From positions 1 to 36,187 of the IMG/VR virus record IMGVR_UViG_2778261630_000008: a stretch of DNA of 36,187 nt. One strand, given 5' to 3'. How positions within the stretch are numbered: the stretch's first letter is position 1; every line of letters begins with the position of its first letter. Origin of the DNA: a virus (lineage: Duplodnaviria > Heunggongvirae > Uroviricota > Caudoviricetes). The position numbers were made by a program, and so were the translations under genes. Below the pieces are notes generated by a model. That model was not told the DNA's origin. It saw only the letters and a program-made list of their open reading frames with translations, and did not search any database. Below are positions 11,311 through 31,693 of this stretch, one piece after another.

Positions 11311-12344
11311 TGGGAAAGAGTAAGAAGAACCGCGCTGCGTCGACGAAACAGATCCAGAATAAAAGCCAGACTTCAGCCGAAGCATTCAGCTTCGGTGATC
11401 CCGTTCCTGTTCTGGACCGCCGCGAACTGCTGGACTATGTGGAATGCGTACAGATGGATCGTTGGTACGAGCCGCCTGTGAGTTTCGACGGACTGGCGCG
11501 AACCTTCCGCGCCGCCGTGCATCACAGCTCACCGATTGCAGTGAAGTGCAACATTCTGACCAGCACCTACATCCCTCACCCGCTGCTCAGCCAGCAGGCT
11601 TTTTCGCGTTTTGTACAGGACTATCTGGTTTTTGGTAACGCCTACCTGGAGAAACGCACAAACCGCTTCGGTGAAGTTATCGCCCTTGAGCCTGCACTGG
11701 CAAAATACACCCGACGCGGGTTAGACCTTGATACCTACTGGTTTGTGCAATACGGCATGACTACGCAGCCGTATCAGTTCACGAAAGGCAACATTTTTCA
11801 TCTGATGGAACCGGACATCAACCAGGAGATCTACGGCCTGCCTGGTTATCTTTCTGCCATTCCGTCAGCTCTGCTCAACGAGTCCGCCACGCTGTTCCGC
11901 CGCAAGTATTACATTAACGGCAGTCATGCAGGCTTCATCATGTACATGACCGATGCAGCGCAGAACCAGGAGGATGTGAACAACCTCCGCAATGCGATGA
12001 AAAGCGCCAAAGGTCCTGGTAACTTCCGTAACCTGTTTATGTACTCGCCTAACGGTAAAAAGGACGGGCTTCAGATTATCCCGTTGTCAGAAGTGGCGGC
12101 GAAGGATGAGTTCCTGAATATCAAGAACGTGAGCCGGGACGACATGATGGCGGCGCATCGTGTGCCGCCACAAATGATGGGGATAATGCCTAATAATGTC
12201 GGGGGGTTTGGGGATGTGGAGAAGGCCAGTCGCGTATTTGTACGTAATGAATTAACGCCCTTGCAAAAAAGGCTACAAGAGCTGAACGACTGGCTGGGCG
12301 AAGAAGTGATTAAATTTACGCCCTATATTCTTTCAGAAGAATAA
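11310..12344 (+). CDS. Q: portal protein
   Basis: ORF-track start 11307 is TTG; ATG at 11310 gives 344 aa, the P2 gpQ length. Confidence 0.95.
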   Translation: MGKSKKNRAASTKQIQNKSQTSAEAFSFGDPVPVLDRRELLDYVECVQMDRWYEPPVSFDGLARTFRAAVHHSSPIAVKCNILTSTYIPHPLLSQQAFSRFVQDYLVFGNAYLEKRTNRFGEVIALEPALAKYTRRGLDLDTYWFVQYGMTTQPYQFTKGNIFHLMEPDINQEIYGLPGYLSAIPSALLNESATLFRRKYYINGSHAGFIMYMTDAAQNQEDVNNLRNAMKSAKGPGNFRNLFMYSPNGKKDGLQIIPLSEVAAKDEFLNIKNVSRDDMMAAHRVPPQMMGIMPNNVGGFGDVEKASRVFVRNELTPLQKRLQELNDWLGEEVIKFTPYILSEE

Positions 12345-12352
12345 TTCCGAAC

Positions 12353-13051
12353 TTATTTGTTTCTTCTTTGTTCACGCCTTGTCTTGGCTTCGATAAGGCG
12401 TTGAGGTTCAGTGTAAAGCCGTTCTAAAAAAAGATAGGTAAAATCTTCAAGATCCTCAGCAGCAGCTTTATCCAAAATACCTTCATGCGCTCCATCATTT
12501 CCGTCATCTTTAACGCATTCAGCTAGTTCCCTTAAAGCTTCAGGCAGTAGATGATTATCAAATAACCACTCCATTCTTAACCCTAGGCTTCTCCTTATTT
12601 TTTGCGCAGGCCCTTGCTCCCCATCAGGAAGAAGTCCTTTTGTGGCATAATCAAGGCAAAGCCTAAACATGGTTGCTGCTGCATTATAACAACCTATAGC
12701 CAAACATTTCGCCCCTTCCTCATATGCACTATTGATATGCTCAGGTAAGAACTCTGGTGGCTCCTCTACTGCTAAGTCTGCCGGTGATATAGGCCTAACA
12801 ACCTCTGCAACTTCCTTTAAGCCGAATATTCCACTTTCCCAATTATAGCCATCTAAAGTTTTATTTTTCGTTAAAGGTCTGCAAAGAAACATTGTCGTTT
12901 TATGACACTCTCGGCAAACACAATAGACCTCGTACTCGTATGTTTTACCCCCGCCCAATGCATTGTAAACCCTAGTGCAATTCAGCCCATTAACATCAAA
13001 CGCTATTTTTTGTGATCCACATCGTGGACAGTCATCTACTAACATAACCAT
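12353..13051 (-). CDS. cargo protein, 232 aa: N-terminal 4-Cys zinc ribbon plus helical C-terminal domain (possibly DUF4145-like); function unknown
   Basis: ATG 13051 with GGGAGGAG RBS; CPRC...CVCRECH cysteine pairs; more AT-rich than the phage backbone; inserted between the portal stop and cos. Confidence 0.6.
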   Translation of the reverse strand: MVMLVDDCPRCGSQKIAFDVNGLNCTRVYNALGGGKTYEYEVYCVCRECHKTTMFLCRPLTKNKTLDGYNWESGIFGLKEVAEVVRPISPADLAVEEPPEFLPEHINSAYEEGAKCLAIGCYNAAATMFRLCLDYATKGLLPDGEQGPAQKIRRSLGLRMEWLFDNHLLPEALRELAECVKDDGNDGAHEGILDKAAAEDLEDFTYLFLERLYTEPQRLIEAKTRREQRRNK

Positions 13052-13160
13052 GTCAATTACTCCTCCCTATGAAAAAAATGAGTTGAAAAATTGAATATTC
13101 ACGACTTAAAAAGCTAGCCTATTTAACACCATAATTTCATTAATTCAACCATGAGCGCGC

Positions 13161-13180
13161 GCTCGTATCCCCGCCACGCC
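13161..13180. other. cos site of the prophage (186-type variant)
   Basis: Minus-strand GGCGTGGCGGGGATACGAGC shares the first 13 nt with the 186 cohesive end as I recall it; the flanks align base-for-base with the satellite cos region at 27011..27060. Confidence 0.55.
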
Positions 13181-13225
13181 TGCCCGCTTTATGTAGTGGT
13201 TTTCATGCACCTGCATGATCTACGC

Positions 13226-13250
13226 AAAAGCCCGCCAGAACTGGGCGGGC
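13226..13250 (-). terminator. rho-independent terminator downstream of the 433-aa cargo gene
   Basis: GCCCGCC / GGCGGGC stem (13230..13236 with 13244..13250) followed on the minus strand by TTTT. Confidence 0.5.
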
Positions 13251-13475
13251 CTTAGCAAAAACGATCCTCAAACGATCATGCAATATCATGCACTAAAGAC
13301 ATGCACTAACAAGTGAAACTCCGTATCCAAATGACCACTTGCGAAACATTCGAATTAATAAAGCTAAAGATCTGCAGCGCTCGAGATGCGGTCGTTAGTT
13401 TAAGAAGCTTATTAGTGCATTAGAGTTATGAGATCGTTTGACATAGGGGCTCATAAGTGTTGCTACTTCTTATAT

Positions 13476-14777
13476 TTATTCGGTTAAATTTTTCAATGGC
13501 GCACCTGGAAGATGATGATGAACAAACTTACCTTTATATTCAATATGATAGCAAAGTAACATATAGAACAATGTTAGGCATGAGTTATAATTTTTAACAT
13601 TTTCTTGCCAAGAATGTTCTTTAAAATGTTTTGCGTGCGCAGATCTATTTCTTGCTTTATACCAAGTTGTAGCTAACTCTTCTGGAAAAAATCCTTTTTT
13701 TGCCATATTAAAAAGAGTTCCTTTGACCGAGGATCTTCCACCTTTTTCTAGCAATTGAATAATCGAAGATTTAACTCTCTCGTTTATTTCAAGGTTTTCT
13801 ATCACAGGCTTAGACTCACAACATAAACTGGAAAACTCAACATCTTCTATTTTAAAAGTAGAGTAAAATTTATTTATTACACCTTCAATTGAAACAGTTA
13901 GACTGAGAGTTTCATTTTCTAAATCAGATTGATGAGCATTAAATATCTTTCTCCAATAATAGTAAAAGGTTTTATCAGTCTCGAATTTTTTAATGTATGC
14001 TTGCGAAAATTGCACCCATTCATTTAGATAATATGGAGCTCTTTGAGGAATAAAAGTCATCAGCCTCTGTTTTTCTTTATTATCAATATGCTTAAATATC
14101 AATAACCTACTGTCATTCCCTTGCCACAACACTAAAGCAGGATTGAGTAGAACCCCAGATGCAACGGACAATGAATCTAGAATACTTTTAGCATATAAAT
14201 AAGAAAAATCATCATCAGAATCAAGACAAATCCTAGTGTATTTATCCTCTAAAAGAATGCTAACATTTATATTATTCAACGAAAATACGGATCTCGTCCT
14301 ACGCTTCCCTTCCTCACCTAAGTCTTGAAATTCATTACAAGGGATATTAATTTTTTGCGGGATGAAAAATATTACTTTATGTTTTTTAAAATCCCCATCT
14401 ATTTTTCTTTTTATTTCATAAAGCTCACAATCAATGCTTACCCCTTGTTGTGAAGCATTGATATTTACATATGGGTCAACATCTTTTGCTTGCCATAAAT
14501 ACCCATTCAAATCAATCGCATTCATAGAAAAAAGATATTCACTACCGATGATTTCTCCATAATCAAGATGATTATATGTTGGGCATGTGCTAAATTGAGC
14601 ATCAGTTTCTTTATGTAAGAACTTTAGATGAATTTTATTATTTTTATAATAAAAAAATCCAGAACCTGTAAACATTTTTGGATTTTCATTAGTTTGTTGT
14701 GTGAGAGTCACCTCAATTAATTCATGAGTAAATGAACCAGCCAATAGTTCTTCAATTTTTTCTTTAACAATGTTCAC
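13476..14777 (-). CDS. cargo protein, 433 aa, strongly AT-rich; C-terminal HEPN-like R-N-x3-H motif; candidate anti-phage / abortive-infection effector
   Basis: GTG 14777 with AAGGAAGGA RBS; motif WYKARNRSAHAKHF near the C-terminus; sits at the cos-to-gene-A accessory locus (old/tin position of P2); composition contrasts with the backbone. Confidence 0.7.
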   Translation of the reverse strand: MNIVKEKIEELLAGSFTHELIEVTLTQQTNENPKMFTGSGFFYYKNNKIHLKFLHKETDAQFSTCPTYNHLDYGEIIGSEYLFSMNAIDLNGYLWQAKDVDPYVNINASQQGVSIDCELYEIKRKIDGDFKKHKVIFFIPQKINIPCNEFQDLGEEGKRRTRSVFSLNNINVSILLEDKYTRICLDSDDDFSYLYAKSILDSLSVASGVLLNPALVLWQGNDSRLLIFKHIDNKEKQRLMTFIPQRAPYYLNEWVQFSQAYIKKFETDKTFYYYWRKIFNAHQSDLENETLSLTVSIEGVINKFYSTFKIEDVEFSSLCCESKPVIENLEINERVKSSIIQLLEKGGRSSVKGTLFNMAKKGFFPEELATTWYKARNRSAHAKHFKEHSWQENVKNYNSCLTLFYMLLCYHIEYKGKFVHHHLPGAPLKNLTE

Positions 14778-15034
14778 TAACTATCCTTCCTTCATATATA
14801 ATATCAACAATCATCACCACATCTTATATCCACTTTTCCTAAGTTTCAAACTAATCATGTTATAAGGCTCAGTTTGATTTATACATTTTTATTCTCAATT
14901 GAGTTTTAGCAATGCCCGCTTCTAATACACTGCTGATGATCACTTATCAAAGCGATCACGACATCTAACACCTCATTTCACTCGTTGTTCTATTTTATCC
15001 CCATCAGAATGAATCTTCTGGGGAGCAACGTTTC

Positions 15035-15268
15035 TTAATGCAGCCAGCTGTCGTCTTCCCACACCTTCTGCATAATTTTCATCACTTGTTTTCTTTCTTC
15101 ATCCAGTTGCAGTCCGGTTAGTTCCACACCGTTAGAGCTACCTTTGCGAATGCGAATTACCGTTTTGGGATACAGGGGGCGCAGATTGCGGTAAAGCTCG
15201 GATTCAAGGGCGTTCAGGGTAGACTGGCTAATCTTCTGCTCTTTATCGATCATTATTTCAATGCGCAT
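15035..15268 (-). CDS. DinI-family protein
   Basis: ATG 15268 with GAGGTGA RBS; 77 aa (MRIEIMIDK...VWEDDSWLH) resembling DinI as recalled; second gene of a LexA-box operon. Confidence 0.8.
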   Translation of the reverse strand: MRIEIMIDKEQKISQSTLNALESELYRNLRPLYPKTVIRIRKGSSNGVELTGLQLDEERKQVMKIMQKVWEDDSWLH

Positions 15269-15278
15269 AAAAGTCACC

Positions 15279-15467
15279 TCAGCTGATGACATCCATTGAG
15301 CGGTTGTATTCGTGGCTTCTGATTTTTGCCATGAGTTCATCAGTCAATTCAGAAACCCACTGCAGAGCCAGCCCCTTCTCTTCATCACTACACTCACTAG
15401 CCGCTACAAGCTTAAGAAAAAAATCAATGCGCTGGAGCTTCAAAGACTCCAAAAAATAGTCCTGCAT
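15279..15467 (-). CDS. small SOS-operon protein at the Tum (antirepressor) position of 186
   Basis: 62-aa ORF, ATG 15467 with AGGAGGAA RBS, ~40 bp downstream of a LexA box; function inferred from position only. Confidence 0.5.
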   Translation of the reverse strand: MQDYFLESLKLQRIDFFLKLVAASECSDEEKGLALQWVSELTDELMAKIRSHEYNRSMDVIS

Positions 15468-15509
15468 CTTTCCTCCTATAACACCAAAACGATACTGTAT
15501 AGATAACCA

Positions 15510-15525
15510 CTGTTTATATTTACAG
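15510..15525 (-). promoter_or_regulatory. LexA box (CTGT-N8-ACAG)
   Basis: CTGTTTATATTTACAG: exact CTGT, 8 A/T-rich nt, ACAG, upstream of the orf62/DinI-like operon. Confidence 0.65.
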
Positions 15526-15619
15526 CATATAATAATCTTACTGATGTAAAACGTTTTTTTACGTTCATCAGCCTGATATGCCTGGTATTATTAAGAGCAC
15601 GAATTGTTAACCCGCGTAA

Positions 15620-18034
15620 TTAATACAGGTTCCGCCACTTATCATCTTCCTGCAAACGCTGGTTCCGATAGAAGACACGCAGGCCTGCTCCTGACGGAAT
15701 ACTGCCGCCGCGAAGGAGTAAATCGACCTCTTTCTCGCTGCCATCAAATCCTCTGGACTTCAGTTCATAGACGAGCTGCTGTCGCTGATGGTCTGTAATT
15801 CGCTGTTTGTAGTCTTTACGCCGTTTCGGTTTCACCTGGCGTAACCTTGCAGCCAGTTCCCGGCGCTCTTTTTTGCTCATACTGTGCAGGTAATCGTGCA
15901 ACTCCTTGTCATTCATACGGGTAATATCCGTTCTGGAGTCCCCATCAGCTGATTTGTCTTTCCCTTGTTGGTTCAAATTTTCAGCAAGGGGACAGTTATT
16001 GCCACGAGTCCAAGGGGCGCAAGCGCCCTGGTCGGCTGCCGCCTCCTGAACGTCAACGGCCTTACGAACCATTTTCCACTTCACTGCATGAGTGCAGATC
16101 TTGCCCTCTGCAATGGGTGACCAGATGCCATAAATACGAATACCGTGATCGCCATAGGCGGTTGGCTCTTCGTTGATTTCATAAGCGGTTCTGATGAGGT
16201 GATATTTGCGGGGAACCAGTACGCCGCCCTGCTTCATGATGTAGGTGGCAAAACAACCAGCATCAGCAGCAGCCAGGATGGCATCAAGGCGCGGGTTATC
16301 CAGTACCGGCGCACCTGCTTTTTTGTCACCCTGTTGCCTTGCCGCCTGACCAGCCAGCAATCGCAGTTCACGGTAAGCCTGACGCCCCGGAATGCCAAAG
16401 AAGCGGAATTGCTGAACACGATGCAGAGACGCCCAGGCATTAACATATTCAGCGTTATCACGCAGGGATTTACCCGTTTCCTTACTGATCTCGCCAGCCA
16501 GACCACGCCCGTCAATATTCTTACTGATATATTTCGCAATGTAGCTTGTCGGCGTTCCTTTGCGCGGGTTTATCAGCTCAGACTTAAAGCGTGGCCCCGT
16601 GTTATTGCCCAGCTCCTCGCGGTCTTCTCGGATGGCAAACTTACGCAACAATGCAGTAATGGCGCGGCGGTCTTTTTTGCGCATGAAACACAACAGGTGC
16701 CAGTGAACTGTGCCGTCATGATGCGGCTCAGCCACCCGCACGCCATACCAGCGCAACCCGGCTTTGTGCATAGCCTTACGAAATGCAGCAAACATGCCGA
16801 CCAGATAATCGCTGCTTTGTCTTACTGTCGCGTTGGTCCAGGTCGGGTTTGGCCTGCCGTTATTTAGCGTGGAATGGAAACGTGACGGACAGGTGATGGT
16901 GTAGAAAACGGCGCAGTCACCACGCATTTCCGCGATAAGCTCCAGGCCTTTAACACAGGCCATCATCTCGTTGCGGCGATGCGCCGGGTTGCTGCTGCTG
17001 GCGTTTACCACATCCTCCATGTTCAGCGTGTCGCCGTCTTCGTTCACCAGTTCATGAGAACGGAAAAACTCCAGCGACTTACGGCGCTGCTCACGTTTAT
17101 GCATCACGGCTTCATAGCTGACATAGGGAGATGCTTTTTTGCTGACCAGGCAGACAGCACGCAACTGCTCTTCCCGCCATTCGCAACGCATCTTCCATAA
17201 TTTCCGATACCACCAGTCGGCGCACAGCATACGCGCCAGCGAACCCGGAATGAGTTCATAAGGCACAGGTTTGCGGCGGTTTCTTTTCCGGCGGAGTTGC
17301 TCAAACGCAGGCGGTATGACATCCAGTCGCAGGGTTTCTGCAGCCACCTTTTCCCATGTCTTGCGGATTTCTTCTGGCTTAACATCATCGGAGGCGTACA
17401 AATCACCACAAGCGGCATCAAGACACATGCTCATATGCGCAGCGACAAGGGTAGACAGGCGTTTCACCTGATCCTGACTCATTTCAGGCAGGATCAGCAG
17501 ACCGTCCAGCCCTTCATGGCTTGCCATAAAACGAAAAGATGCAGATAGCTGGCTGTCGCGTACATGCTCCAGTCGTTCCAGACATGGCTTAATCGTCTCA
17601 CGCAAATAGCGGGAATAAGCCTTTGGCCTGCCCAGGCTGCTGAAATATTCAATACGTTGCATCAGCGGCTTGCTGATATGGGAAGGCTGGGCGTTGACGT
17701 CAGCCAGAATGACCATATCCGGATTAAAACGCTGCTGCTCATGCGCCAGCTTTGCCCGGCTAATGAGCTTATCCTGCTCCATTTCGCGTTGGACAGGATC
17801 ACGGGATTCATTAAAGAAATAACGCTCCCAGACCTGATCACTCAGTGCCTCGCGGCGCAGTTGTTCCTGCTCGTTATCGGTAGCGTACAGAGTGATCAGG
17901 TTTGAAAGCGCAGAAACCGGCGCAACTTCCGCCGGGTCCAGATAAGGGTTAATGGCCTTTTTCGGGCTGTTCCATGAGAATGCTGCGGCGACCTTGTTAA
18001 AGCCGCTGCAGTTGTTCATATCAGCATGGCTCAT
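15620..18034 (-). CDS. A: replication initiation endonuclease (rolling-circle initiator)
   Basis: 804-aa ORF, convergent with Q across cos as in P2; start overlaps dam stop (ATGA). Confidence 0.95.
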
Positions 18035-18888
18035 GCACGCACTCCGTACACGGCAGAACTATCCACGCCACGCGAAGGATCAAATCCCACCCAGCAGCGC
18101 GGCCCGGAAACAGCGATGATTTCTGTTGCAGATTTACTCTCACCAGCTGCTACACCGATGCTGCGTTTTGCCTTGATGTAGTGGTGAGTAAAATTGCGAT
18201 ACAGCGAACGGATCAGGGATGTATCACTGTTAGAAACAATGACCGGATGTCCTTCTGATGACCGATGTTCAAGAACGGATGCCAGGTGATACTGGTCATC
18301 TTCAGTGAAACCATCAGTGTGATAGCCGGAAAACGTACCGTCATACGGCGGATCGCAATACACCACATCCCCCACCTGCAGCATCGCCAGCGTTTCATCA
18401 AAGCTTGCGCAGATAAACGTTGCACGCTGGGCTTTCTCTGCAAATGCGCGAATTTCTTTTTCAGGGAAATACGGATTTTTATAATTACCGTAGGGAATGT
18501 TGAAATGCCCGCTCTTGTTATAGCGACATAAACCACGGTAACCGTGACGATTGAGATACAGGAAATATACCGCTTTCATGAAATCAGTAATTTCAGTGGA
18601 GTAATTAAACTCCTGCCTTATGTTGTAATAAGCCACCTCCCTGTTTGCGATCTCAAATAAAACTCTGGCGCGAGATATAAACGATTCACAATCAGAGGCA
18701 ACCTTTTTATAGAGGTTGATTAAATCAGGATTAATATCCGCAACCAGATAGCTGGGGTAATCCGTCTCCATCATCACAGCACAGGAACCCGCGAAAGGTT
18801 CAACCAGTCGCGGGCCAGCAGGAAGGTGTTTTTTCAGTTCGGACATAATGGCGGTTTTATTTCCCGCCCATTTCAGGATGGTGCTCAT
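18031..18888 (-). CDS. dam: DNA adenine methyltransferase (Dam-like)
   Basis: Start re-picked at ATG 18888 ([11 protein letters not shown]..., GGAGG RBS); N-terminal AdoMet-binding motif and DPPY catalytic motif. Confidence 0.9.
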
Positions 18889-19112
18889 ACAGCACCTCCG
18901 TTGTAATGTTTGCCTTTCAGCTCTGCGATTTCCTGACAGGTAATGCAAAGCTGCACACCCGGAATGGCACGGCGGCGTGCTGGCGGAATTGGCGCTTCAC
19001 ACTCAACGCAAAGCACGCGGGACACGCCCGGCGTTTTGGCACGGGCAGCACGGATATGACGTTGGCGTTCTTCTTCAACTCGCTGCTGTACGAGATCCAT
19101 TGCATCAGCCAT
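18885..19112 (-). CDS. TraR/DksA-family C4 zinc-finger protein
   Basis: 75 aa with CVEC...CITC four-cysteine motif; early-operon position like P2 orf82. Confidence 0.8.
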   Translation of the reverse strand: MADAMDLVQQRVEEERQRHIRAARAKTPGVSRVLCVECEAPIPPARRRAIPGVQLCITCQEIAELKGKHYNGGAV

Positions 19113-19345
19113 CAGTGGATCTCCTGCGCTTCGTTCTGGATTGCTTCAGCAGTCACACGCAGCAGTTCTGCCGCTTCGACGTGGTTTAGTTGGCGGGATG
19201 TGATATGACACGCCAGGCTATCAAGGCGAGCTGCCATTGCTTCAGCCCTTGCCCGGCGTTCTTCCAGACGAGCCTCTGTCAGTAAAATATTAAGCCCTGC
19301 ATCATCCGGTCCGGTTTTAGTCGTGAGGGTTTCAATATTACGCAT
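19112..19345 (-). CDS. early-operon hypothetical protein
   Basis: ORF-track start is TTG; ATG 19345 has AGGAGA RBS; 77 aa. Confidence 0.55.
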   Translation of the reverse strand: MRNIETLTTKTGPDDAGLNILLTEARLEERRARAEAMAARLDSLACHITSRQLNHVEAAELLRVTAEAIQNEAQEIH

Positions 19346-19412
19346 AATCAATTCTCCTGAATTTAGATAAAGGGATGCCCGGCGGGTTTACGCCATTAAT
19401 TTCATTAGTTGG

Positions 19413-19754
19413 TTAATTCGGCATGGTTAGCCGTCTGGGAAATAAGCTCACCACTGCACGAAAATGATTCATTGCTTTAATCAGCTCCCGCTTTTCGTCA
19501 GTGGTCAGCTCATTAATGCTGATGCTATGACGTTCAGCTGGAATTTTTGCCATAAAGAATATGGCAGCCAGTGCCCGTTTATTTTGTTCATTATTGATAT
19601 CCCGTGGATCACGCATATCTTTAATAAACCGCTCAAGCTCTGACTCAATATTCAGGCCAAAAACTTTCGCCCTTAACTCCGCAATGTGATTAAGTCCATT
19701 CAGGCGTTCACCGGGGCTTAATGGAACAGTTGCTGCAGCGCCATTAATTGCCAT
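19413..19754 (-). CDS. early-operon hypothetical protein
   Basis: 113-aa ORF, ATG start, same orientation as the cII..A operon. Confidence 0.55.
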   Translation of the reverse strand: MAINGAAATVPLSPGERLNGLNHIAELRAKVFGLNIESELERFIKDMRDPRDINNEQNKRALAAIFFMAKIPAERHSISINELTTDEKRELIKAMNHFRAVVSLFPRRLTMPN

Positions 19755-19776
19755 ACTTCATATCCCCCAAACGCAG

Positions 19777-20001
19777 CTATCGTTCTTTGTTCTTACGGTA
19801 ACGCTCAAGAGGAGATACATTTTTTCGTATCGTCTCTTTAACCTGCTCTCCCCGTAAAAACGTCCCATCCTTTAACGTGAAAAAGTAACTGCCATCGCCC
19901 GACAATGACGGATAGCAACAGAGCAAATCATCTTCAGGTACTGAATAACTCTCCCCTCTGTAACGAAACTGATAAACCACTTCACTTTCTGCCCCATACA
20001 T
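19777..20001 (-). CDS. early-operon small ORF (fil/dhr position of 186)
   Basis: 74 aa; ATG 20001 with GGAGAAAG upstream; overlaps another frame. Confidence 0.4.
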   Translation of the reverse strand: MYGAESEVVYQFRYRGESYSVPEDDLLCCYPSLSGDGSYFFTLKDGTFLRGEQVKETIRKNVSPLERYRKNKER

Positions 20002-20168
20002 TTGGACTTTCTCCGTTTCCTCGTGGTCAATTCAGACAGCAATTCATCTTGTGAATGACATGGATGCCAGCGTTTTCCATCCTCACCCGTGATCCAGCCG
20101 TGACCGTAGTGCATTGCCGGGCTTTGTTTTACCAGCAGCGATGCAAATGATGGTTCTTTCGTCAGCAT
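19872..20168 (-). CDS. early-operon small ORF overlapping the previous one
   Basis: ATG 20168 with GAGGTG RBS directly after cII stop; C-terminal half overlaps the 74-aa ORF in another frame, so the true 3' end is uncertain. Confidence 0.3.
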   Translation of the reverse strand: MLTKEPSFASLLVKQSPAMHYGHGWITGEDGKRWHPCHSQDELLSELTTRKRRKSKCMGQKVKWFISFVTEGRVIQYLKMICSVAIRHCRAMAVTFSR

Positions 20169-20175
20169 AAACACC

Positions 20176-20685
20176 TCACAGCAAACCGAATGAAGCACCA
20201 AGGCCAGTCATGGTATCAACTGCACTCGCCATCGCCGGGTTAGCCTGTAAACGGGCCTGCAATGAAACAGCAGCCAGCGCCATCAGTCGTGTTACAGAGT
20301 TAATGCTGCTGATAGCATCACGACGACCTGCACTGGTTTTTACATTGCCAGATACCGCACCTGCAGCAATACGCCCGATCTCTGCGGTTGCACTCATGAC
20401 GTAATGCGGCAGTTTCTCTTTTGCTACCTCATTAATCGGTACACATGGCAGGCAGTGAATCTGTGCCAGAAAACCATCTATCAGCGTTGAATCTTCAGTC
20501 AGATCGGTAAGCAGCCAGATTTCTGGCGCATTGAGCTGATGCGGTTGATCTGGGTTGAGTTTGTTTCGCAGAGTCTGGACATTCATTCCTGCACGTTCTG
20601 CCAGCTTCGCCATATTGTGACGAAGTGCAAAAGCTCTACAGGCTTCATCAAAATGCGGGTGTTTGGAAATCTTATAATCAAACAT
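20176..20685 (-). CDS. cII: CII-type lysogeny establishment regulator (186 CII-like)
   Basis: 169 aa, the 186 CII length; N-terminal HTH; AAGGGGG RBS; follows apl. Confidence 0.85.
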   Translation of the reverse strand: MFDYKISKHPHFDEACRAFALRHNMAKLAERAGMNVQTLRNKLNPDQPHQLNAPEIWLLTDLTEDSTLIDGFLAQIHCLPCVPINEVAKEKLPHYVMSATAEIGRIAAGAVSGNVKTSAGRRDAISSINSVTRLMALAAVSLQARLQANPAMASAVDTMTGLGASFGLL

Positions 20686-20717
20686 GCTACCCCCTTAGAA
20701 AGTTCTCATAATTGAAC

Positions 20718-20960
20718 TTACTTACCAACAATGACGCGGAAGTTGGAATGACCGAGGGATTCACGGACCTGATCGGTTTTGTACATTAAATAACGCAGGC
20801 TTACGCGGCCTTTGTTTTTTTCTTTCTTGACCATGTATTTAGCAAGCTGACCATGGTGAATTTTTTGATACACGGAGCCGCGGGAGATACCTTCCCATTC
20901 CGCGAACTCAGCAGGCGTTGCCATCTCTTTTGGTACACGAATTGAAATATCAGTACTCAT
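20718..20960 (-). CDS. apl: Apl/Cox-type excisionase and lytic repressor
   Basis: 80-aa HTH protein, first gene of the rightward lytic operon, divergent from cI. Confidence 0.8.
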   Translation of the reverse strand: MSTDISIRVPKEMATPAEFAEWEGISRGSVYQKIHHGQLAKYMVKKEKNKGRVSLRYLMYKTDQVRESLGHSNFRVIVGK

Positions 20961-21076
20961 AGTGCAGTATCTCTTAGTTTGGTTTCGTTTTATCTTGTTT
21001 TATGTGGTTTGGTTTTGCTTTTCAAACCATGAATGGATATTAAGATCACTTTTTATATACGTCAAGAGGTTTGATT
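20961..21076. promoter_or_regulatory. immunity switch region (lytic and lysogenic promoters and operators)
   Basis: 110-bp AT-rich intergenic between apl and cI with repeated TTTTGCTTTTC / GTTTTATGTGGTTTGGTTTTG motifs; promoter positions not resolved. Confidence 0.45.
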
Positions 21077-21709
21077 ATGAGTTTAATCAAGGCAGGGAAT
21101 GATAGTGGTGGGCGCGATGCGATTAATAGGCTTATTAAGGCTTACAACTTCAGCTCACGACAGCAGCTCTGCGAACATCTGGAAGTATCAAAAAGCACTA
21201 TGGCTAACAGATACTTAAGGGATAGCTTTCCTGCCGAATGGGTAATCCAATGTGCCCTTGAAACAGGAGCTTCCCTTCTTTGGCTGGCTACTGGTCAAGG
21301 AGATATGTATGCGTGTGAGAACGAAGAAACAAATCTCAAAAATGAACCTCCCGTCACTGTAAGACCACTTTCTAAGATCGTTGCTCCTAGCATCAAACGT
21401 GTTGAACTGAAGAACGGCGAACTGCAGCCAAGTGATGAAATTCTTCTTGATAGCAGCCTGCTCGATGGTGACTCATCCAACGCTTTATTTGTTAAAACAG
21501 CTAATGATAGCTTTGTAGTGGATACGTCTGTTAAACAAGTCAGTAATGGCTTCTGGTTAGTCGATATGGACGGAGTTAAAAGCATCGTCAAAATTGCGCG
21601 CATACCCGGAAACAAAATAGTAGTTAACCAAGATGACACTTCATTTGAATGTTCTGTAGATGATGTGGAAGTCGTAGGACGTGCAGTCAAAGTAATCAAG
21701 AACCTCTAA
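21077..21709 (+). CDS. cI: CI immunity repressor
   Basis: ORF-track start 21071 is TTG; ATG 21077 has AGAGG RBS; N-terminal HTH and C-terminal oligomerisation-like domain; followed by int as in 186. Confidence 0.8.
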   Translation: MSLIKAGNDSGGRDAINRLIKAYNFSSRQQLCEHLEVSKSTMANRYLRDSFPAEWVIQCALETGASLLWLATGQGDMYACENEETNLKNEPPVTVRPLSKIVAPSIKRVELKNGELQPSDEILLDSSLLDGDSSNALFVKTANDSFVVDTSVKQVSNGFWLVDMDGVKSIVKIARIPGNKIVVNQDDTSFECSVDDVEVVGRAVKVIKNL

Positions 21710-21712
21710 CTT

Positions 21713-22753
21713 ATGACCATCAGAAAACAGCCGAACGGAAAATGGTTGTGTGAGTGCTATCCCAATGGACGCAATGGTAAGCGCGTGCGTAAGCAATTTG
21801 CTACCAAAGGCGAAGCCATTGCGTTTGAAAGCTTCACAATGGAAGAAGTGAACAAAAAACCATGGCTAGGGGAAAAGGAAGATCGGCGACATCTATCAGA
21901 ATTAATTGAGCTGTGGTATTCCCTGTATGGTCAAACACTCGCAGACCCCAAGCGCCTCATGGCGAAACTTAGAATTATCTGTAATGGTCTAGGCGATCCC
22001 ATCGCCTCAGAACTGACAGCTGGTGAGTTTACGAAATACCGCGAAGCACGGTTAAAAGGTGAAGTACGAAATGAAGATGGCACGCTTATGTCGCCAGTTA
22101 AGCCCCGCACGGTAAATCTTGAACAGCGCAACCTATCATCTGTTTTTGGTACACTGAAAAAGCTGGGCCACTGGTCAGCCCCCAACCCGCTTGCTGGGCT
22201 GCCAACATTTAAAATTGCTGAGGGTGAATTGGCGTTCCTGACCCCGGAAGAAATTAAACGTCTGCTGGATGCCTGTGCTGATTCTCAAAGCCCCAGTCTG
22301 CTGATGATTGCAAAAATATGCTTGGCCACCGGCGCACGCTGGAGCGAAGCCGAAAACCTACAGAGTCATCAGGTATCAAAATACCGTATCACTTATACCA
22401 AGACTAAAGGAAAGAAAAACCGAACAGTGCCTATTTCAAAGGATTTATATGAAGAACTGCCTAAGAATAGGGGAAAATTATTTACACCTTGTAGGAAAGC
22501 TTTTGAACGTGCGGTAAAACGAGCTGGTATCGAGCTACCAGAAGGGCAATGCACACACGTATTACGACATACATTTGCAAGTCACTTTATGATGAATGGC
22601 GGAAACATACTGGTGCTGCGCGATATTCTGGGCCATGTCGATATAAAAATGACAATGATTTACGCCCACTTCGCTCCCGACCATCTGGAAGATGCTGTAA
22701 CCAAAAATCCTCTTGCTAACCTTGGATGGAGAAAATTAGAAAGTGCTTGTTAA
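21713..22753 (+). CDS. int: tyrosine integrase
   Basis: 346 aa with C-terminal R...H.LRHT...Y catalytic region; 4 bp after cI stop. Confidence 0.9.
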   Translation: MTIRKQPNGKWLCECYPNGRNGKRVRKQFATKGEAIAFESFTMEEVNKKPWLGEKEDRRHLSELIELWYSLYGQTLADPKRLMAKLRIICNGLGDPIASELTAGEFTKYREARLKGEVRNEDGTLMSPVKPRTVNLEQRNLSSVFGTLKKLGHWSAPNPLAGLPTFKIAEGELAFLTPEEIKRLLDACADSQSPSLLMIAKICLATGARWSEAENLQSHQVSKYRITYTKTKGKKNRTVPISKDLYEELPKNRGKLFTPCRKAFERAVKRAGIELPEGQCTHVLRHTFASHFMMNGGNILVLRDILGHVDIKMTMIYAHFAPDHLEDAVTKNPLANLGWRKLESAC

Positions 22754-22859
22754 TAACTATATCCAACAATACCCATGGATATCGTACTTACTTATCATAA
22801 TATATTTTATATATATATGCCTTGAATTATATCTATGCGTATCAAAAAAAGGCTTTAAC

Positions 22860-23789
22860 ATGGATGAAAGGCCATTAACAAGTCAATACTTATTTAAACA
22901 ATCACTTAGGATTCCTGTATTTTCAGCGATATACTTTGGTATATTTTCCTGGCTTGGACATTCCCCTCAATTTGATAGTGAGGGCTTTAATAATTTCATT
23001 GCAATTAGCAAGCTTCCTATCGCCTTACTTTCTTTGTCCATACCATTTGTTGCTGTCGTAGCAAACATACACCGCACAGTTCAAACAAACCGACAAATTG
23101 AGGAAACCAAGCAAAAGAATCTATCTGATAGCTACTATAGCCATCTAAAGTTCGTTACTGATTATTTCACCAATTTACCTAACAAAACCATTAAACGCGA
23201 ACGTCATTATGGTACTAAAGAGATAAGTTATAAAATTAACTACCCAATACATCTATATAGATATATTTTCATAAATAGCTCACCAGAGAAGGGACGGCCT
23301 AAAAATACAGATAAAGAATACATACGTGAAGTAAATAATCACTGGGTTGATATACTAAAAAACCTAGAGAAGATACTTTCATCTAATCGTGGCTCTCAGT
23401 TTGACGAAGTTTTAATCCGTCAAATGCAATCTCTTCATTCAATAGAAAAACACTTATCCGAACTTAATCGAATGCTTTGCCTAACTCCCATGGAGTTAAA
23501 TGAACATGCAACTTTATACTTTGATGGATATGAAATGATTACTAACTTCATGTCCAGCATTGAACTTGGCGATACAATTGAAACCTACTTCAAATTTACC
23601 ATTGATATTCTTGATATTACCGATAATTTCCTTTCATTCAAGGATGATGGCTCGTCTGGGCAAATCATTATACTAGCAAGATTACTGAAAGATAATAATC
23701 CAGCTATCTTTGATGAAATTGTAACAAACAAAGGGAAGGCTCAACCTTCGTTGACCTACAATGGCGACAGATTGGCGACAGAACATTAA
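22860..23789 (+). CDS. cargo protein, 309 aa, AT-rich, two N-terminal TM helices; function unknown
   Basis: ATG 22860 after an AT-rich promoter-like stretch (TATATATATA); hydrophobic segments IPVFSAIYFGIFSWLG and IAISKLPIALLSLSIPFVAVVANI; lies between int and the att core. Confidence 0.6.
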   Translation: MDERPLTSQYLFKQSLRIPVFSAIYFGIFSWLGHSPQFDSEGFNNFIAISKLPIALLSLSIPFVAVVANIHRTVQTNRQIEETKQKNLSDSYYSHLKFVTDYFTNLPNKTIKRERHYGTKEISYKINYPIHLYRYIFINSSPEKGRPKNTDKEYIREVNNHWVDILKNLEKILSSNRGSQFDEVLIRQMQSLHSIEKHLSELNRMLCLTPMELNEHATLYFDGYEMITNFMSSIELGDTIETYFKFTIDILDITDNFLSFKDDGSSGQIIILARLLKDNNPAIFDEIVTNKGKAQPSLTYNGDRLATEH

Positions 23790-23874
23790 AAATGAGTAAA
23801 ACGGACAAACACAAGATAATACTAACTTGATGATTTTAAACGCAAGTTAATGTTTTTGCTATAGTGAAAATGGT

Positions 23875-23919
23875 ATGTAGGAATTTCGGACGCGGGTTCA
23901 ACTCCCGCCAGCTCCACCA
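23875..23919 (+). other. ssrA: tmRNA (ssrA) 3'-terminal 45-nt segment = attachment-site core shared by the prophage and the satellite
   Basis: ATGTAGGAATTTCGGACGCGGGTTCAACTCCCGCCAGCTCCACCA matches the E. coli tmRNA 3' end as I recall it; sequence upstream diverges, so this is not a full tmRNA gene. Confidence 0.8.
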
Positions 23920-23952
23920 CTTGCTCTTCCGGATACGTCCGGAGAAATCCTG

Positions 23953-23988
23953 AAAGCCCACATGGAACAAGCCTTGTGGGCTTTTTTG
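23953..23988 (+). terminator. rho-independent terminator (ssrA-type)
   Basis: GCCCACA / TGTGGGC stem followed by TTTTTT (23982..23987). Confidence 0.65.
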
Positions 23989-24030
23989 TGTCCTCAGTTG
24001 TCCGAGAATATCCCGCTAAATCCAGTGATT

Positions 24031-24083
24031 ATTGGTATACGTTTAGGTATACGGTAAGATGTATACCTAAAAGCGTATACCAA
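24031..24083. repeat. integrase arm-type repeats (GGTATAC-containing, direct and inverted)
   Basis: ATTGGTATACGTTTAGGTATACGG then inverted GATGTATACCT and CGTATACCAA; a near-identical direct copy lies at 34434..34460. Confidence 0.4.
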
Positions 24084-24103
24084 TTCATAAAGGAGCGGCC
24101 AAA

Positions 24104-25297
24104 GTGGCAAGAACGACACGCCCCCTGACCAACACAGAAGTGCTGCGCGCAAAAGCGTTAGAAAAGGATCTTACATTGCATGATGGCGATGGTCTTTTTC
24201 TTCTCGTTAAAACGAACGGTAAGAAGTTATGGCGTTTCCGTTATCAACGTCCGACAACAAAGCAGCGGACAATGATGGGGCTAGGTGCCTTCCCAGCCAT
24301 ATCGCTTGCAGATGCCAGGAGATTAAAAGCTGATTATCTTTCATTATTAGCCAATGGAATTGATCCGCAAATTCAAGCGAAAGTGGCAGAGGAACAGCAA
24401 CAAATCGCGCTTGACAGTATTTTTTCAACAGTCGCCGCTAACTGGTTTCTGCTCAAAAGCAAAAGCGTTACCCCTGATTACGCAAAAGACATTTGGCGTT
24501 CACTTGAGAAAGACGTATTCCCCACTATCGGTGAGATCCCCGTTCAGAAGATCAAAGCCCGAACATTAATTGAAGCTCTTGAGTCCGTCAAAGCTCGAGG
24601 GGCGCTAGAGACCGTTCGTCGACTGGTGCAACGCATTAACGAGATAATGATTTATGCGGTTAACACCGGTTTGATTGATGCAAATCCAGCATCAGGTGTT
24701 GGTATGGCATTTGAGAAACCTAAAAAGAAAAATATGCCAACACTACGCCCAGAGGAATTGCCTAATCTGATGCATTCATTAACAATGTCAAATCTATCTG
24801 TCTCTACTCGATGTCTCATTGAATGGCAACTCCTAACTCTTGTCCGCCCTTCTGAAGCTTCAGGCACTCAATGGGCTGAGATCGATTTAGATGCGAAACT
24901 CTGGATAATTCCAGCTGAAAGAATGAAAGCAAAACGAGAACACATTGTTCCTTTGTCCCCCCAAGCTTTAGACATTTTGAATATAATGAAACCCATCAGT
25001 GCTCATCGTACACATGTTTTTCCTAGCAGGAGTGACCCCTTAAAACCAATGAATAGCCAAACGGCAAATGCCGCATTAAAGCGAATTGGCTTCGCTGGCA
25101 AACTAGTAGCCCATGGTCTACGTTCTATTGCAAGCACCGCCTTAAACGAACGTGGTTACAATCCTGATGTTATAGAAGCAGCTCTTGCTCATAGCGATAA
25201 AAACGAAGTACGTCGCGCTTATAATCGCTCGGTTTATTTAGAAAAACGTAAGCAACTAATGAATGATTGGGGGCAAATTGTGCACCCCCAATCATAA
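24104..25297 (+). CDS. int: P4-family tyrosine integrase (IntA-like)
   Basis: 397 aa, GTG start with AAGGAG RBS; strong resemblance to CP4-57 IntA / P4 Int as recalled; ~185 bp downstream of the ssrA core. Confidence 0.9.
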   Translation: MARTTRPLTNTEVLRAKALEKDLTLHDGDGLFLLVKTNGKKLWRFRYQRPTTKQRTMMGLGAFPAISLADARRLKADYLSLLANGIDPQIQAKVAEEQQQIALDSIFSTVAANWFLLKSKSVTPDYAKDIWRSLEKDVFPTIGEIPVQKIKARTLIEALESVKARGALETVRRLVQRINEIMIYAVNTGLIDANPASGVGMAFEKPKKKNMPTLRPEELPNLMHSLTMSNLSVSTRCLIEWQLLTLVRPSEASGTQWAEIDLDAKLWIIPAERMKAKREHIVPLSPQALDILNIMKPISAHRTHVFPSRSDPLKPMNSQTANAALKRIGFAGKLVAHGLRSIASTALNERGYNPDVIEAALAHSDKNEVRRAYNRSVYLEKRKQLMNDWGQIVHPQS

Positions 25298-25346
25298 AAA
25301 ACGATTTCAGTCCAAGCAACTATTAAAATTCAATAGATTGGGGACT

Positions 25347-26931
25347 TTATGTAGATTTAACATCAAGATGTTCTCCACAGTATCCGATAATTATTTTACG
25401 TTTACTTCTATCAACCCAAAAGTGGATTCTTATAGTTTCAGACTTGGAGCGGGCTGTTCCTATACCAACGTGTTGGAACATCTTTATTTTTTGACCATTA
25501 TAGTCAAACTCTCTCATTTTAGATAATGTAGCAGATCGCTCTACCGTCTCTGATTCATTTGCTGAATAAGCATCACCAAGAATATCTTTGGCCTTATTAT
25601 CTCCATTTTCAAGATACTCAAGAAGATATTCTGTACAAAGTTTATATAATAAATAAATCAATCTATGATTGTGTTTGAATTTCGATGAGTTCCTCGCTGA
25701 AGAAAATGCTGATTTAAGAATCTCAACATTATTAGGGATTAGGATTTCTAATAAACTCAAAACGGACTCAGGGTTTAACCTATTGCTAATTAAAGATATT
25801 ATCTTTTCAACATCAACATCACCATCAGTAGCTTTTCCATGGTATTTCCTAATATCGTATTTTAACCTTTCTAAGTCTACTTCTATTTTATTTTTTTCAA
25901 AGACAACTGCATCATGCTTTGCATCCAATTCCTCAATCCTTTTTAAATAATCAAGCTCTAATTCTTCACTAGCAGCCTTAAACTCCTCAAACTCTAAGAG
26001 GACTTCATCGAGCAAAGCTTCATACTGAGCACCATCTTTTAACTCATTTAATCTCTGCCTAAAAGAAATATTATCATCACGCTGTCTTTTGGCACGAACA
26101 TTAGCTGGTGATAAATGCAACTTTTTATTATAGCCATTAAAAGCATGCGTTATTACTGATAATATATAATTATTAATAGGAACATTACCCGCTTTAATTT
26201 CATCAACTTGCTTCGGGAGAAAAAGTTTTGTTCCTATATACCCTGACTTATTCATTGGGTAAATAATATTTATTGCCCCCCCCCCAAGATGAATAGTGTC
26301 TTCCAAGTAATCGTTCCATTTCCCAAGAGTCCATTTTACCACTTGTTGCAACAACCTGAGCAAGCCCAATAAGTTGCTCCTGTAGTTTTTCAGGTATAAC
26401 AGGAAATCCATCATTACCTTCACTAATAAAAACTAGCGGGTAGGTCCTGTCATCCCTAGAAATTTCATGCATAAGATACTGAAAGTCGCCATACTGACTT
26501 TTAATATAATCCACTTTCTGGCCGATAACATCCAGATCGAATACACAATTCCGTTTCAAATATGATACCAGAGATGGACGAGTAGCAATTGGTTTTGCAT
26601 CAACCATAGTGCTAACATCACTTATTTCTAACAATATAGATATAAACGTGCTTCCTTTTTCACGTCTAATTCCAATTTCTGTAATCCATTGTCTACCGCT
26701 CACATTCCTATCAGGATGAGTGTACATTATGGAATATATTTTAGGTTCCATTCTATCAGCCGTGTAGGTTCTAACATAGGCTCGCTCTAAATTCCAATCA
26801 CGCCGCGAAAGTAGCTCATCTGTTGATAGGCGAATATTAGCAACCCTATTAAGCCAACCACACACAGAACGCACTACGCTAAAAAAACTATCTTCACCGA
26901 TGCAATTAAACGAATTAACATAAACTAACAC
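25347..26931 (-). CDS. satellite hotspot gene, ~528 aa if read through a G10 tract; as written split into 227-aa and 358-aa overlapping frames; function unknown
   Basis: GTG 26931 with AAAGGAGA RBS; frame A (26931..26248) and frame B (26423..25347) overlap by 176 bp with the homopolymer inside the overlap; loss of one G fuses them; AT-rich; between int and cos. Confidence 0.55.
26276..26285. repeat. homopolymeric tract, C10 on plus strand (G10 on coding strand)
   Basis: Ten consecutive C at 26276..26285, at the junction of the two frames of the hotspot gene. Confidence 0.95.
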
Positions 26932-27019
26932 TACAATCTCCTTTCACTCATTTAAAGGGGAGGCTGAAAAGGAGTTATCTTATATACTTTTTGTAAATTA
27001 TTTCAATCTTTTGCGCGCA

Positions 27020-27038
27020 GTGCTTTCCCCGCCTCGCC
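27020..27038. other. cos site of the satellite (P2/P4 type)
   Basis: GTGCTTTCCCCGCCTCGCC is the reverse complement of GGCGAGGCGGGGAAAGCAC, the 19-nt P2/P4 cohesive end as I recall it. Confidence 0.8.
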
Positions 27039-27140
27039 CGCCCGCTTTGCGGGGCGGTTTTAATGCAGTTTCACTGACACGCTCAGGCCGCGCCGGGAAT
27101 GGCGCGGTCTGCAGAAAATGAGGCAGGAAAACGCATGCAA

Positions 27141-27172
27141 AGCCATGCACCTTATCGATGCATGGCTTTTTT
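27141..27172. terminator. stem-loop terminator between cos and psu
   Basis: AGCCATGCA / TGCATGGCT 9-bp stem with T-run on the plus side and A-run on the other; could terminate the sid-delta-psu transcript. Confidence 0.45.
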
Positions 27173-27202
27173 CAGTAAAAACAGGCGGATTTTCGGGGAA
27201 TT

Positions 27203-27775
27203 TTACACAGACTGACGTGATGCCAGTTGCGCACTTTTACGCGAAAAAATCATGTTCTGCGCAGGGGTGAATTTTTCACGGCTGTCATCCACCGAAGCCG
27301 CGTCAGGCCTGAATCCGATGGCCGTTAAAATGTCGCTATCCTGTGCGGAATAATTAATTTTTTCCCCCTTCGCAAGCCAGGACAGAAGGGCTTCACGCAG
27401 GGCATCTGTGGTACGCTGTATGGCACAGTTTCGGGCAATGGCCGTCAGCTCACTGTAGCCCATCAGCTCCGGTGCCAGTGCCGCCGCCAGTGCTGTACCG
27501 TGCTGCTGCATAAAATCATTCAGCCGGTCGCGGATGCTGATGTGCTGAACGGCTTCATGCGAACGAATATAACGACCGGCGGCCTGATTCACCTGCCATT
27601 TTCTGACTTCGATAATATTGCGTAATTCGTCCAGGCGGCTGACGTTTCTGCCTTCTCCTGACAGAAGCCGCAGATATTCCTGTTCGGCCGCTGCCAGCTC
27701 ATTTTTGCGTTGCAGCCATGCTGCTTTGTTATTCTGACAGGTGTCAAAGGCCTGCTGTAAGGCTGTGCTTTCCAT
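27203..27775 (-). CDS. psu: polarity suppression protein Psu (capsid decoration / Rho antagonist)
   Basis: 190 aa, the P4 Psu length; last gene of the sid-delta-psu operon next to cos. Confidence 0.9.
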   Translation of the reverse strand: MESTALQQAFDTCQNNKAAWLQRKNELAAAEQEYLRLLSGEGRNVSRLDELRNIIEVRKWQVNQAAGRYIRSHEAVQHISIRDRLNDFMQQHGTALAAALAPELMGYSELTAIARNCAIQRTTDALREALLSWLAKGEKINYSAQDSDILTAIGFRPDAASVDDSREKFTPAQNMIFSRKSAQLASRQSV

Positions 27776-27848
27776 CGTTATCTCTTTCTCATCATGCTGA
27801 AGAATAAAAATACGGTGTGCGGCGACGGCCGGGGTTAACCGGCAGCCC

Positions 27849-29080: not shown

Positions 29081-29114
29081 TTTCCGGCTCCTCGTCACTT
29101 CAGGTTAAGAAAAT

Positions 29115-29132
29115 TGTGACGTACACCGGACA
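29115..29132. promoter_or_regulatory. TGT-N12-ACA activator site upstream of sid (Psid-type late promoter)
   Basis: TGT 29115..29117, 12 nt, ACA 29130..29132, just upstream of the sid start. Confidence 0.5.
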
Positions 29133-29249
29133 ACAACACGACGCATTGCAGATGTGCCAGCCCTGACACAGGAGACTCATCCTCAGACCGGCAAGCCAGG
29201 AAAAGGTCGCAGGAAAAACCGGCTTACTGTTTGTTTTTTTATATTTTAC

Positions 29250-29363
29250 TGTTCACCTCTGTTCACCATAAGAAAAAAGATAAGTAATACAGTAAGTTAA
29301 ATGGTGAACAATCGCAGTAATGACTGTTCACCGTCTGTTCACCACTGTTCACCACTGTTCACC
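29250..29363. repeat. iteron cluster (TGTTCACC octamers), ori-like
   Basis: Six direct TGTTCACC copies (29250, 29260, 29325, 29336, 29346, 29356) plus one inverted GGTGAACA (29303); this octamer is the alpha-protein binding repeat of P4 ori/crr as I recall it. Confidence 0.7.
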
Positions 29364-31679: not shown

Positions 31680-31693
31680 AGGAGAACAACACC

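Follow-up and report, generated by a model that had tools for sequence, protein, structure and literature searches.

Directly behind the replication gene of a Fels-2-type prophage (Felsduovirus, P2/186 family) lies a short operon, read on the minus strand at positions 15035 to 15525 of IMG/VR virus record IMGVR_UViG_2778261630_000008. The whole record, 36,187 nucleotides (nt) in length, was analysed and is called the window below. The operon comprises orf62, which encodes a protein of 62 amino acids (aa), and a gene for a DinI-like protein, with two overlapping LexA operators upstream of both. The arrangement is already known: it is a split tum (tumA/tumB) SOS operon, and we use the name tumA for orf62 and tumB for the DinI-like gene.

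A double LexA operator ahead of tumA and tumB

The features of the locus, in the direction of transcription, are the following.

15620-18034, minus strand: replication gene A, an 804-aa open reading frame (ORF) for a P2 gpA-like nicking replicase; relatives all annotate a replication endonuclease or gpA
15540-15572, minus strand: imperfect hairpin between gene A and the tum promoter, whose descending arm includes the -35 TTTACA
15545-15550, minus strand: predicted -35 TTTACA of the promoter equivalent to p95 of phage 186, from a crude position weight matrix (PWM), with the geometry annotated for 186 p95
15522-15529, minus strand: predicted -10 region, assigned by analogy with 186 p95; it shares bases with the left arm of SOS box 1
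15508-15527, minus strand: SOS box 1 (LexA operator), TGCTGTAAATATAAACAGTG, with the core CTGT-N8-ACAG at 15510-15525
15493-15512, minus strand: SOS box 2, CAGTGGTTATCTATACAGTA, sharing 5 nt with box 1
15472-15476, minus strand: tumA ribosome-binding site (RBS) GGAGG, read in the sequence, 4 nt before the ATG
15279-15467, minus strand: tumA (orf62), 62 aa, ATG at 15467-15465 and stop codon TGA
15275-15280, minus strand: tumB RBS GAGGTG, read in the sequence, overlapping the tumA stop codon
15035-15268, minus strand: tumB, DinI family, 77 aa, starting exactly 10 nt past the orf62 stop
14998-15024, minus strand: hairpin directly after tumB that lacks a U-tract (fold -16.3 kcal/mol, z -3.1)

Gene A forms the upstream boundary of the tum position, and a 152-nt intergenic region between its end at 15620 and the tumA start carries the imperfect hairpin, TTTACA (15550-15545) and TATATGCTGTAAATATAAACAGTGGTTATCTATACAGTAT. 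The original prediction, made from the sequence, had described a textbook LexA box about 40 bp upstream of a 62-aa ORF with a strong RBS, followed 10 bp later by a DinI-family gene with an RBS of its own. This anatomy holds throughout. A perfect CTGTTTATATTTACAG is present at 15510-15525 (plus strand) and ends 42 nt before the ATG at 15467, GGAGG stands 4 nt before that codon, and the second gene follows after a 10-nt gap with GAGGTG as its RBS and a clear match to Pfam DinI (PF06183, 79.8 bits, E 1.9e-22, curated cut-off 24.2). The two genes are in different frames (+1).

The pattern CTGT-N8-ACAG occurs once in the 36-kb window, where 0.44 occurrences are expected by chance, and box 1 is also the sole instance with an all-A/T spacer, a combination that none of 100 shuffles contained. 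What raises the box above chance is its recurrence in every relative examined despite unconserved surrounding intergenic DNA. A perfect CTGT-N8-ACAG lies 15-45 nt before the start codon in 11 of 11 diverse loci, namely the window, Fels-2, 186, PSP3, a Yersinia phage, an ESSI2-like phage and five distant prophages whose orf62 homologues share 37-44% identity, and the remaining intergenic DNA is not conserved among them. We read this conservation as a strong phylogenetic footprint. Box 1 is likewise kept in 119 IMG/VR contigs, which were retrieved with a pattern that includes it.

In Fels-2-type phages the operator extends into a second box, CAGTGGTTAT-NNN-TACAGTA, with a five-base overlap with the first, and positions 15493-15527 follow the pattern CTGT-N8-(A/C)CAGTGG-N8-ACAG of a colicin-type double SOS operator. 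The 119 contigs, for which box 1 was the sole selection criterion, preserve the arms of box 2 and vary freely at its centre. The 39-nt double-box stretch is about 92% identical to a sequence on more than 1,000 mostly small mobilizable plasmids (ColRNAI); on the one plasmid checked, this copy stands 43 nt upstream of a cloacin/colicin-like gene, which is followed by immunity and lysis genes. Colicin operators are reported to be bound by two LexA dimers (PMC2994835; Lu & Chak 1996 as cited there), and the Fels-2-type double box would afford tighter, probably cooperative repression.

The promoter was modelled with a self-built PWM, which is crude and only indicative. Its -10 falls within the left arm of box 1 in most family members, either as TACTGT or as TATACT 2 bases upstream; p95 of 186 is annotated as TTCACA-18-TACTGT. 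In the window the -10 reads TATGCT (15-nt spacer) or TGCTGT (17-nt spacer), where relatives have TATACT or TACTGT. A simple promoter scanner returned no promoter at the operator, and an Rfam scan of 12000-24500 gave no match. Folding of 15520-15600 on the minus strand (-16.7 kcal/mol, z -2.2) provides weak evidence for the hairpin at 15540-15572, which is possibly a terminator of the early transcript or an insulator of the SOS promoter. The hairpin behind tumB (14998-15024) is a possible partial terminator. Homology to other phages breaks at 15024-15037, right behind tumB, where a variable cargo region begins.

The locus is widespread. Over 850 bp, identity to Fels-2 and to many phages of E. 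coli, Klebsiella and Salmonella is 96-98%, with the Fels-2 locus at about 96.6% identity in DNA to the window, and Fels-2-type phages are a very common prophage family. The locus is found in 1,125 of 5,426 complete E. coli genomes (~21%), including the laboratory strains B, C and BLR(DE3) and others of the BL21 type, where RefSeq names the genes 'replication endonuclease', 'hypothetical protein' and 'DinI-like family protein'. An exact-pattern scan of genome contigs, with one genome per species, yielded a single locus.

The two products as separate halves of Tum

Giving a length of about 146 aa for phage 186 Tum, which is indeed its length, the original prediction proposed that orf62 might be a truncated or distinct antirepressor and that it be aligned to Tum. 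Pairwise BLASTP of orf62 against 186 Tum gives no alignment, and the match is visible to profile methods only. A hidden Markov model (HMM) built from 30 family members matches residues 6-48 of 186 Tum with 34.4 bits (E 5e-8 at Z=1e5) and a Yersinia phage protein annotated 'tum protein' with 38.9 bits, and hhalign pairs orf62 5-44 with Tum 5-44 at 93.7% (E 1.9e-7), a segment of about 20% identity. The proteins are thus homologous, sharing a motif of approximately L(Q/E)R(I/V)(D/E)-x-(V/I)A(R/K)L-x-A-x3-C-x3-(D/E)(K/R)(E/D)(L/I)AL-x-W(I/V)(A/S)E(L/I). An exhaustive search of 1.8 billion representatives recovered 67 relatives of orf62, down to about 35% identity and nearly all stand-alone proteins of 50-75 aa. 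The AlphaFold model of orf62 is a two-helix hairpin (helices 2-23 and 28-61) with a predicted local distance difference test (pLDDT) score of 90.

The second gene supplies the remainder of Tum. Its product is 40% identical to 186 Tum 71-145 (E 1e-23), aligns end to end with E. coli DinI (PDB 1GHH) and is 77% identical to PSP3 TumB. Since it scores under the NCBIfam DinI equivalog cut-off (41 versus 111 bits), we regard TumB as a DinI paralogue and not as DinI itself. Judged by these alignments, orf62 is the N-terminal half of Tum carried as a separate gene and the DinI-like gene is the C-terminal half (62 + 77 versus 146 aa). Of the two options raised for orf62, truncation therefore survives, as an N-terminal Tum half with its own gene, and a distinct antirepressor does not, given the profile matches to Tum.

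Searches of orf62 against Pfam, NCBIfam and PDB sequences returned no meaningful match, no relative having an entry in the PDB, and in PHROGs it belongs to phrog_698, labelled 'unknown function'. RefSeq calls the family 'hypothetical protein', and some UniRef and Klebsiella phage records carry the name 'levan regulatory protein', which is probably a mis-annotation.

Conservation of the layout speaks to how the two halves relate. orf62 is exactly 62 aa long in 112 of 112 IMG/VR contigs, and in 105 of these a 77-aa DinI gene follows 10-11 nt downstream. Because exact lengths and spacing are kept across contigs, we take the split form to be something other than decay. In distant P2-like prophages the tumA-like gene stands alone behind a LexA box, in the order gene A, small gene, ogr/portal, and no DinI-like sequence was found in the flanks of these tumA-like genes. 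The conserved core is therefore the LexA box plus TumA, and the DinI gene appears to be accessory, dispensable in distant relatives. In 186 itself, internal tum starts are annotated, so that the DinI part is also made on its own. By family membership, TumB is presumably a modulator of RecA filaments.

Split tum genes are on record elsewhere. Right after gene A, the PSP3 record lists tumA as 'similar to 5' end 186 tum', with ultraviolet (UV) induction of the prophage, and tumB as 'similar to dinI and 3' end of 186 tum'. In both Fels-2 and PSP3, according to Lemire et al. 2011 (PMC3121763), tum is split in two, and antirepressor activity is reported there for the upstream gene of PSP3. The title of Bunny et al. 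2002, as given through Lemire 2011 (PMC3121763), attributes lexA null lethality in Salmonella to Fels-2. In 186, Tum sequesters CI and p95 is LexA-regulated (PMC7708051), and full-length 186 Tum binds CI and blocks operator binding (Shearwin 1998, as cited in PMC3121763 and PMC7708051).

The closest experimental counterpart is DuoHS, a P2-like prophage of E. coli HS. In the Phollow study (PMC12055606), mitomycin C no longer caused lysis or virion formation when either tum was deleted in frame or the host carried lexA(Ind-). The deletion junction is given by primer NHR28, in which ATAGGAGGAAAGATG is joined to TGAGGTGACTTTTATGCGCATTG (PMC12055606, primer entry). Each element has an exact match in the window, the first at 15465-15479, over the orf62 start codon, and the second at 15259-15281, over the orf62 stop and tumB start. 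The DuoHS Tum protein is 100% identical to orf62, and DuoHS TumB is 99% identical to its counterpart in the window. The claim that the operon encodes an SOS inducer is thus supported through an orthologue with an identical protein, and the experiments proposed with the original prediction have therefore in effect already been done on that orthologue.

Model of induction and competing explanations

The presumed target of TumA, by analogy with 186, is the CI repressor encoded elsewhere in the window, where the immunity region contains the following genes.

21071-21709, plus strand: cI, 186-type immunity repressor, 32% identical to 186 CI over its full length (E 6e-37)
20718-20960, minus strand: apl-like gene, 80 aa, assigned by position and size only
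20176-20685, minus strand: cII (phrog_101)

The CI protein has the Pfam domains Phage_CI_repr and Phage_CI_C. The Apl-like ORF, CII and Fil read opposite to cI, and the integrase gene follows cI. The window therefore combines a 186-type CI/Apl/CII switch with a tumA directly downstream of gene A in a P2-like phage. Together with the LexA box, this gene order and repressor type bear out the proposal that a 186-like prophage here has a LexA-controlled operon at the tum position.

We give roughly 90% probability to the reading of this locus as a Fels-2-type prophage's SOS ('tum') operon in split form. Its anatomy, its homologies, the conservation of the operator and the identity to an experimentally validated inducer were observed directly. 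In the model that we favour, LexA bound to two overlapping SOS boxes covering -10/+1 would keep the operon silent in an undamaged lysogen; DNA damage would activate RecA, promote LexA self-cleavage and allow transcription. TumA, a 62-aa two-helix protein, would then bind the 186-type CI stoichiometrically and stop its operator binding. The early lytic promoter would fire (apl, cII and replication genes), and the prophage would excise and enter lytic growth. TumB would probably bind RecA filaments and tune the SOS signal. For LexA dependence and the requirement for tum the model draws on the literature on DuoHS, and for CI sequestration on that of 186, and these properties should carry over from the orthologues; contact of TumA with the N-terminal domain of CI and action of TumB on RecA are presumed steps.

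Several points weigh against this reading. The functional evidence all comes from orthologues, and direct CI binding is known for full-length 186 Tum alone, not for stand-alone TumA. The window CI is only 37% identical to DuoHS CI, so its sensitivity to TumA is presumed. The one product that is annotated as TumA, from PSP3, scores a non-significant 3.8 bits with the orf62-family HMM and has no BLASTP match to 186 Tum. Finally, the window has a rare G at position 15526, which reduces the crude promoter score and may make this copy harder to induce.

The last point underlies the first alternative, namely that this copy is an attenuated or non-inducible allele in which an A-to-G change at 15526 weakens the tum promoter and leaves too little TumA to titrate CI, with gene content unchanged. 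The minus strand reads TATATGCTGT in the window and TATATACTGT in E. coli E6, the nearest complete genome, a G for A at base 2 of the 20-mer operator and inside the predicted -10; the replaced A would be -11 of a 186-type TACTGT -10, or position 4 of TATACT. Over 12000-16060 the window and E6 differ at two positions only, one of them 15526, and A is found in six of six close relatives fetched and in 116 of 119 IMG/VR contigs (G in 3). With G, the PWM loses TTTACA-17-TACTGT (9.8), and TTTACA-15-TATACT falls from 10.1 to 7.9. There is also a precedent: Gifsy-1 in Salmonella D23580 is non-inducible through one promoter single-nucleotide polymorphism (SNP), in a LexA-controlled antirepressor operon (PMC5322425). 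Against attenuation, the -10 hexamer and the transcription start in Fels-2-type phages are themselves predictions, the PWM score is indicative at best, the presence of G in three further contigs whose backgrounds have diverged (88-98% identity) suggests a tolerated polymorphism, and a single SNP could be a sequencing error. Natural SOS boxes with TGCTGT, such as lexA box 1 and that of colicin E1, also count against it. We consider attenuation of this copy unlikely.

It is very improbable that the DinI-like protein is the real inducer or is co-required, or that a +1 frameshift in a 62-nt overlap yields an active fused Tum. 186 does have both parts in one polypeptide, and the open DinI frame overlaps the 3' end of orf62, with an A5 run (GCA AAA ATC) within the overlap. 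Against this, a 24-codon open stretch is expected by chance about 1 time in 3, the overlap has no recognisable +1 shift site, and the internal starts annotated in 186 give the DinI part separately. Distant members keep the LexA box and small gene with no DinI-like sequence nearby, and the PSP3 upstream gene alone is reported to have antirepressor activity (PMC3121763). The DuoHS deletion, as its primer is described, takes out orf62 only, though polar effects on tumB may contribute. On the solo tumA relatives, the activity of the PSP3 upstream gene and the lack of a shift site, we rejected both the frameshift fusion and DinI as the inducer.

Next to no credence is due to the idea that the two ORFs are a decayed, once-fused tum, a frameshift pseudogene no longer able to induce: the +1 offset between the genes, the DinI frame staying open 72 nt further upstream (a 101-aa ORF at 15035-15340) and the RefSeq label 'hypothetical protein' for orf62 would fit it, but the layout of 62 aa, 77 aa and 10-11 nt recurs in more than 100 contigs and about 1,125 E. 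coli genomes, neither gene lacks an RBS of its own, homologues down to 35% identity retain the ORF and the conserved motif, and the reading was rejected as contradicted by the loss of induction in DuoHS on deletion of the identical ORF.

The split SOS operon thus remains the preferred reading, and within it the pairing of TumA with CI invites a further, tentative proposal. TumA is 92-100% identical across 66 loci, a sample that was retrieved with the operator sequence and is biased to similar tum regions, and the CI proteins of these loci form at least 14 clusters (80% identity). Compared with the window's CI, their C-terminal domains fall to 24% identity and their N-terminal domains keep 60-100%, including a conserved block in the DNA-binding domain (...SKST.A.R..RD.FP..W.IQCALETG...). 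Identical TumA alongside very different CIs suggests that TumA recognises the conserved N-terminal DNA-binding domain of CI and could cross-induce heteroimmune relatives. It is possible, though we lean against it, that a single near-invariant TumA serves many heteroimmune Fels-2-type prophages as a 'master key'. If so, TumA would inactivate CI via its conserved N-terminal domain and any Fels-2-type prophage could cross-induce heteroimmune relatives; the level of damage needed for induction would be set high by the colicin-grade double LexA operator, which rare operator or -10 alleles (G at 15526) would tune or disable.

As a discovery the locus carries little weight, LexA-Tum induction of 186 being textbook and the split tumA/tumB being on record. 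Its practical value lies in annotation: about a fifth of complete E. coli genomes carry an antirepressor that has no Pfam or NCBIfam model and no name. The double operator, the invariant TumA with diverse CIs and the promoter SNP provide leads on induction thresholds and cross-induction.

Neighbouring genes and comparison with known systems

The cargo carried between tumB and the portal gene differs among relatives, which have retron St85, ParA+SIR2 or other genes there. The ORFs found there in the window, and further elements beyond the immunity region, are listed below.

13476-14777, minus strand: 433-aa ORF of 31% G+C in the cargo region, with promoter-like sites upstream; also present in E. 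coli E6
12353-13051, minus strand: 232-aa ORF adjoining the 433-aa ORF, with DUF4145 and a weak PD-T7-4 match (PADLOC, 1.2e-6)
22743-23789, plus strand: 348-aa low-G+C ORF that starts within the 3' end of the prophage integrase gene, with a match to phrog_17460 (unknown function) and a weak one to a two-transmembrane 'effector' model
24104-34027: P4-like satellite directly beside the Fels-2-type prophage, with genes for a P4-type integrase, Psu, a Sid/Psu-like protein, a Delta-like regulator and an alpha-type primase
25347-26931, minus strand: two overlapping ORFs of 358 and 227 aa (34-38% G+C) that match C- and N-terminal parts of PADLOC HEC-07 models

The 433-aa ORF gave no match in Pfam, PHROGs, PADLOC or NCBIfam and is a candidate for an unknown defence gene. 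The ORF pair at 25347-26931 looks like a satellite defence gene that is frameshift-split or mis-called.

Among known systems, the p95/Tum operon of 186 (NC_001317; Lamont 1989, Brumby 1996 and Shearwin 1998, as cited via PMC7708051) shares with the window its position after gene A, a LexA box overlapping the promoter -10, as predicted here, and a target of the same kind, a 186-type CI. The N-terminal region of 186 Tum is homologous to orf62 and its DinI-like C-terminal region to the second gene. The two differ in that 186 makes one 146-aa polypeptide (plus the annotated internal starts) under a single SOS box, whereas the window has two genes in different frames under two overlapping boxes.

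Closer in layout are tumA/tumB of PSP3 and STM2728/STM2726.1 of Fels-2, which, as in the window, are two genes after gene A with a LexA box upstream. STM2728 is annotated as 'hypothetical' and STM2726.1 as 'DinI family, similar to TumB of PSP3'. Unlike the window, PSP3 has a single SOS box, its tumA and tumB share a frame with a stop codon between them, and its TumA is not detectably similar to orf62 (3.8 bits). The DuoHS operon has the same layout as the window, and tum is needed there for LexA-dependent induction by mitomycin C (PMC12055606). The differences lie in its CI (37% identity), in its downstream cargo genes and in the DNA, in that over the window's 641-bp segment DuoHS stays below 99% identity, without the near-identity of E6.

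Beyond the P2-like phages, the Gifsy dinI-gfoA/gftA operons (Lemire 2011) resemble the window in placing a DinI homologue and a small antirepressor under LexA control, with non-covalent binding of the repressor. They differ in having dinI first, the reverse of the order found here, in their unrelated antirepressor and repressor families, and in belonging to lambdoid phages. For the operator, the nearest counterparts are the double SOS boxes of colicin and cloacin genes. Occupancy by two LexA dimers is reported for the colicin operators by Lu & Chak 1996 as cited in PMC2994835, and the -35/-10 on the colicin plasmid appear upstream of the boxes, whereas the predicted -10 in the window overlaps box 1. 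The boxes themselves are almost the same sequence, TACTGTATATAAAACCAGTGGTTATATGTACAGTAT on a cloacin-type plasmid versus TGCTGTAAATATAAACAGTGGTTATCTATACAGTAT in the window, and the colicin operons, like the tum operon, control a function that is lethal to the cell.

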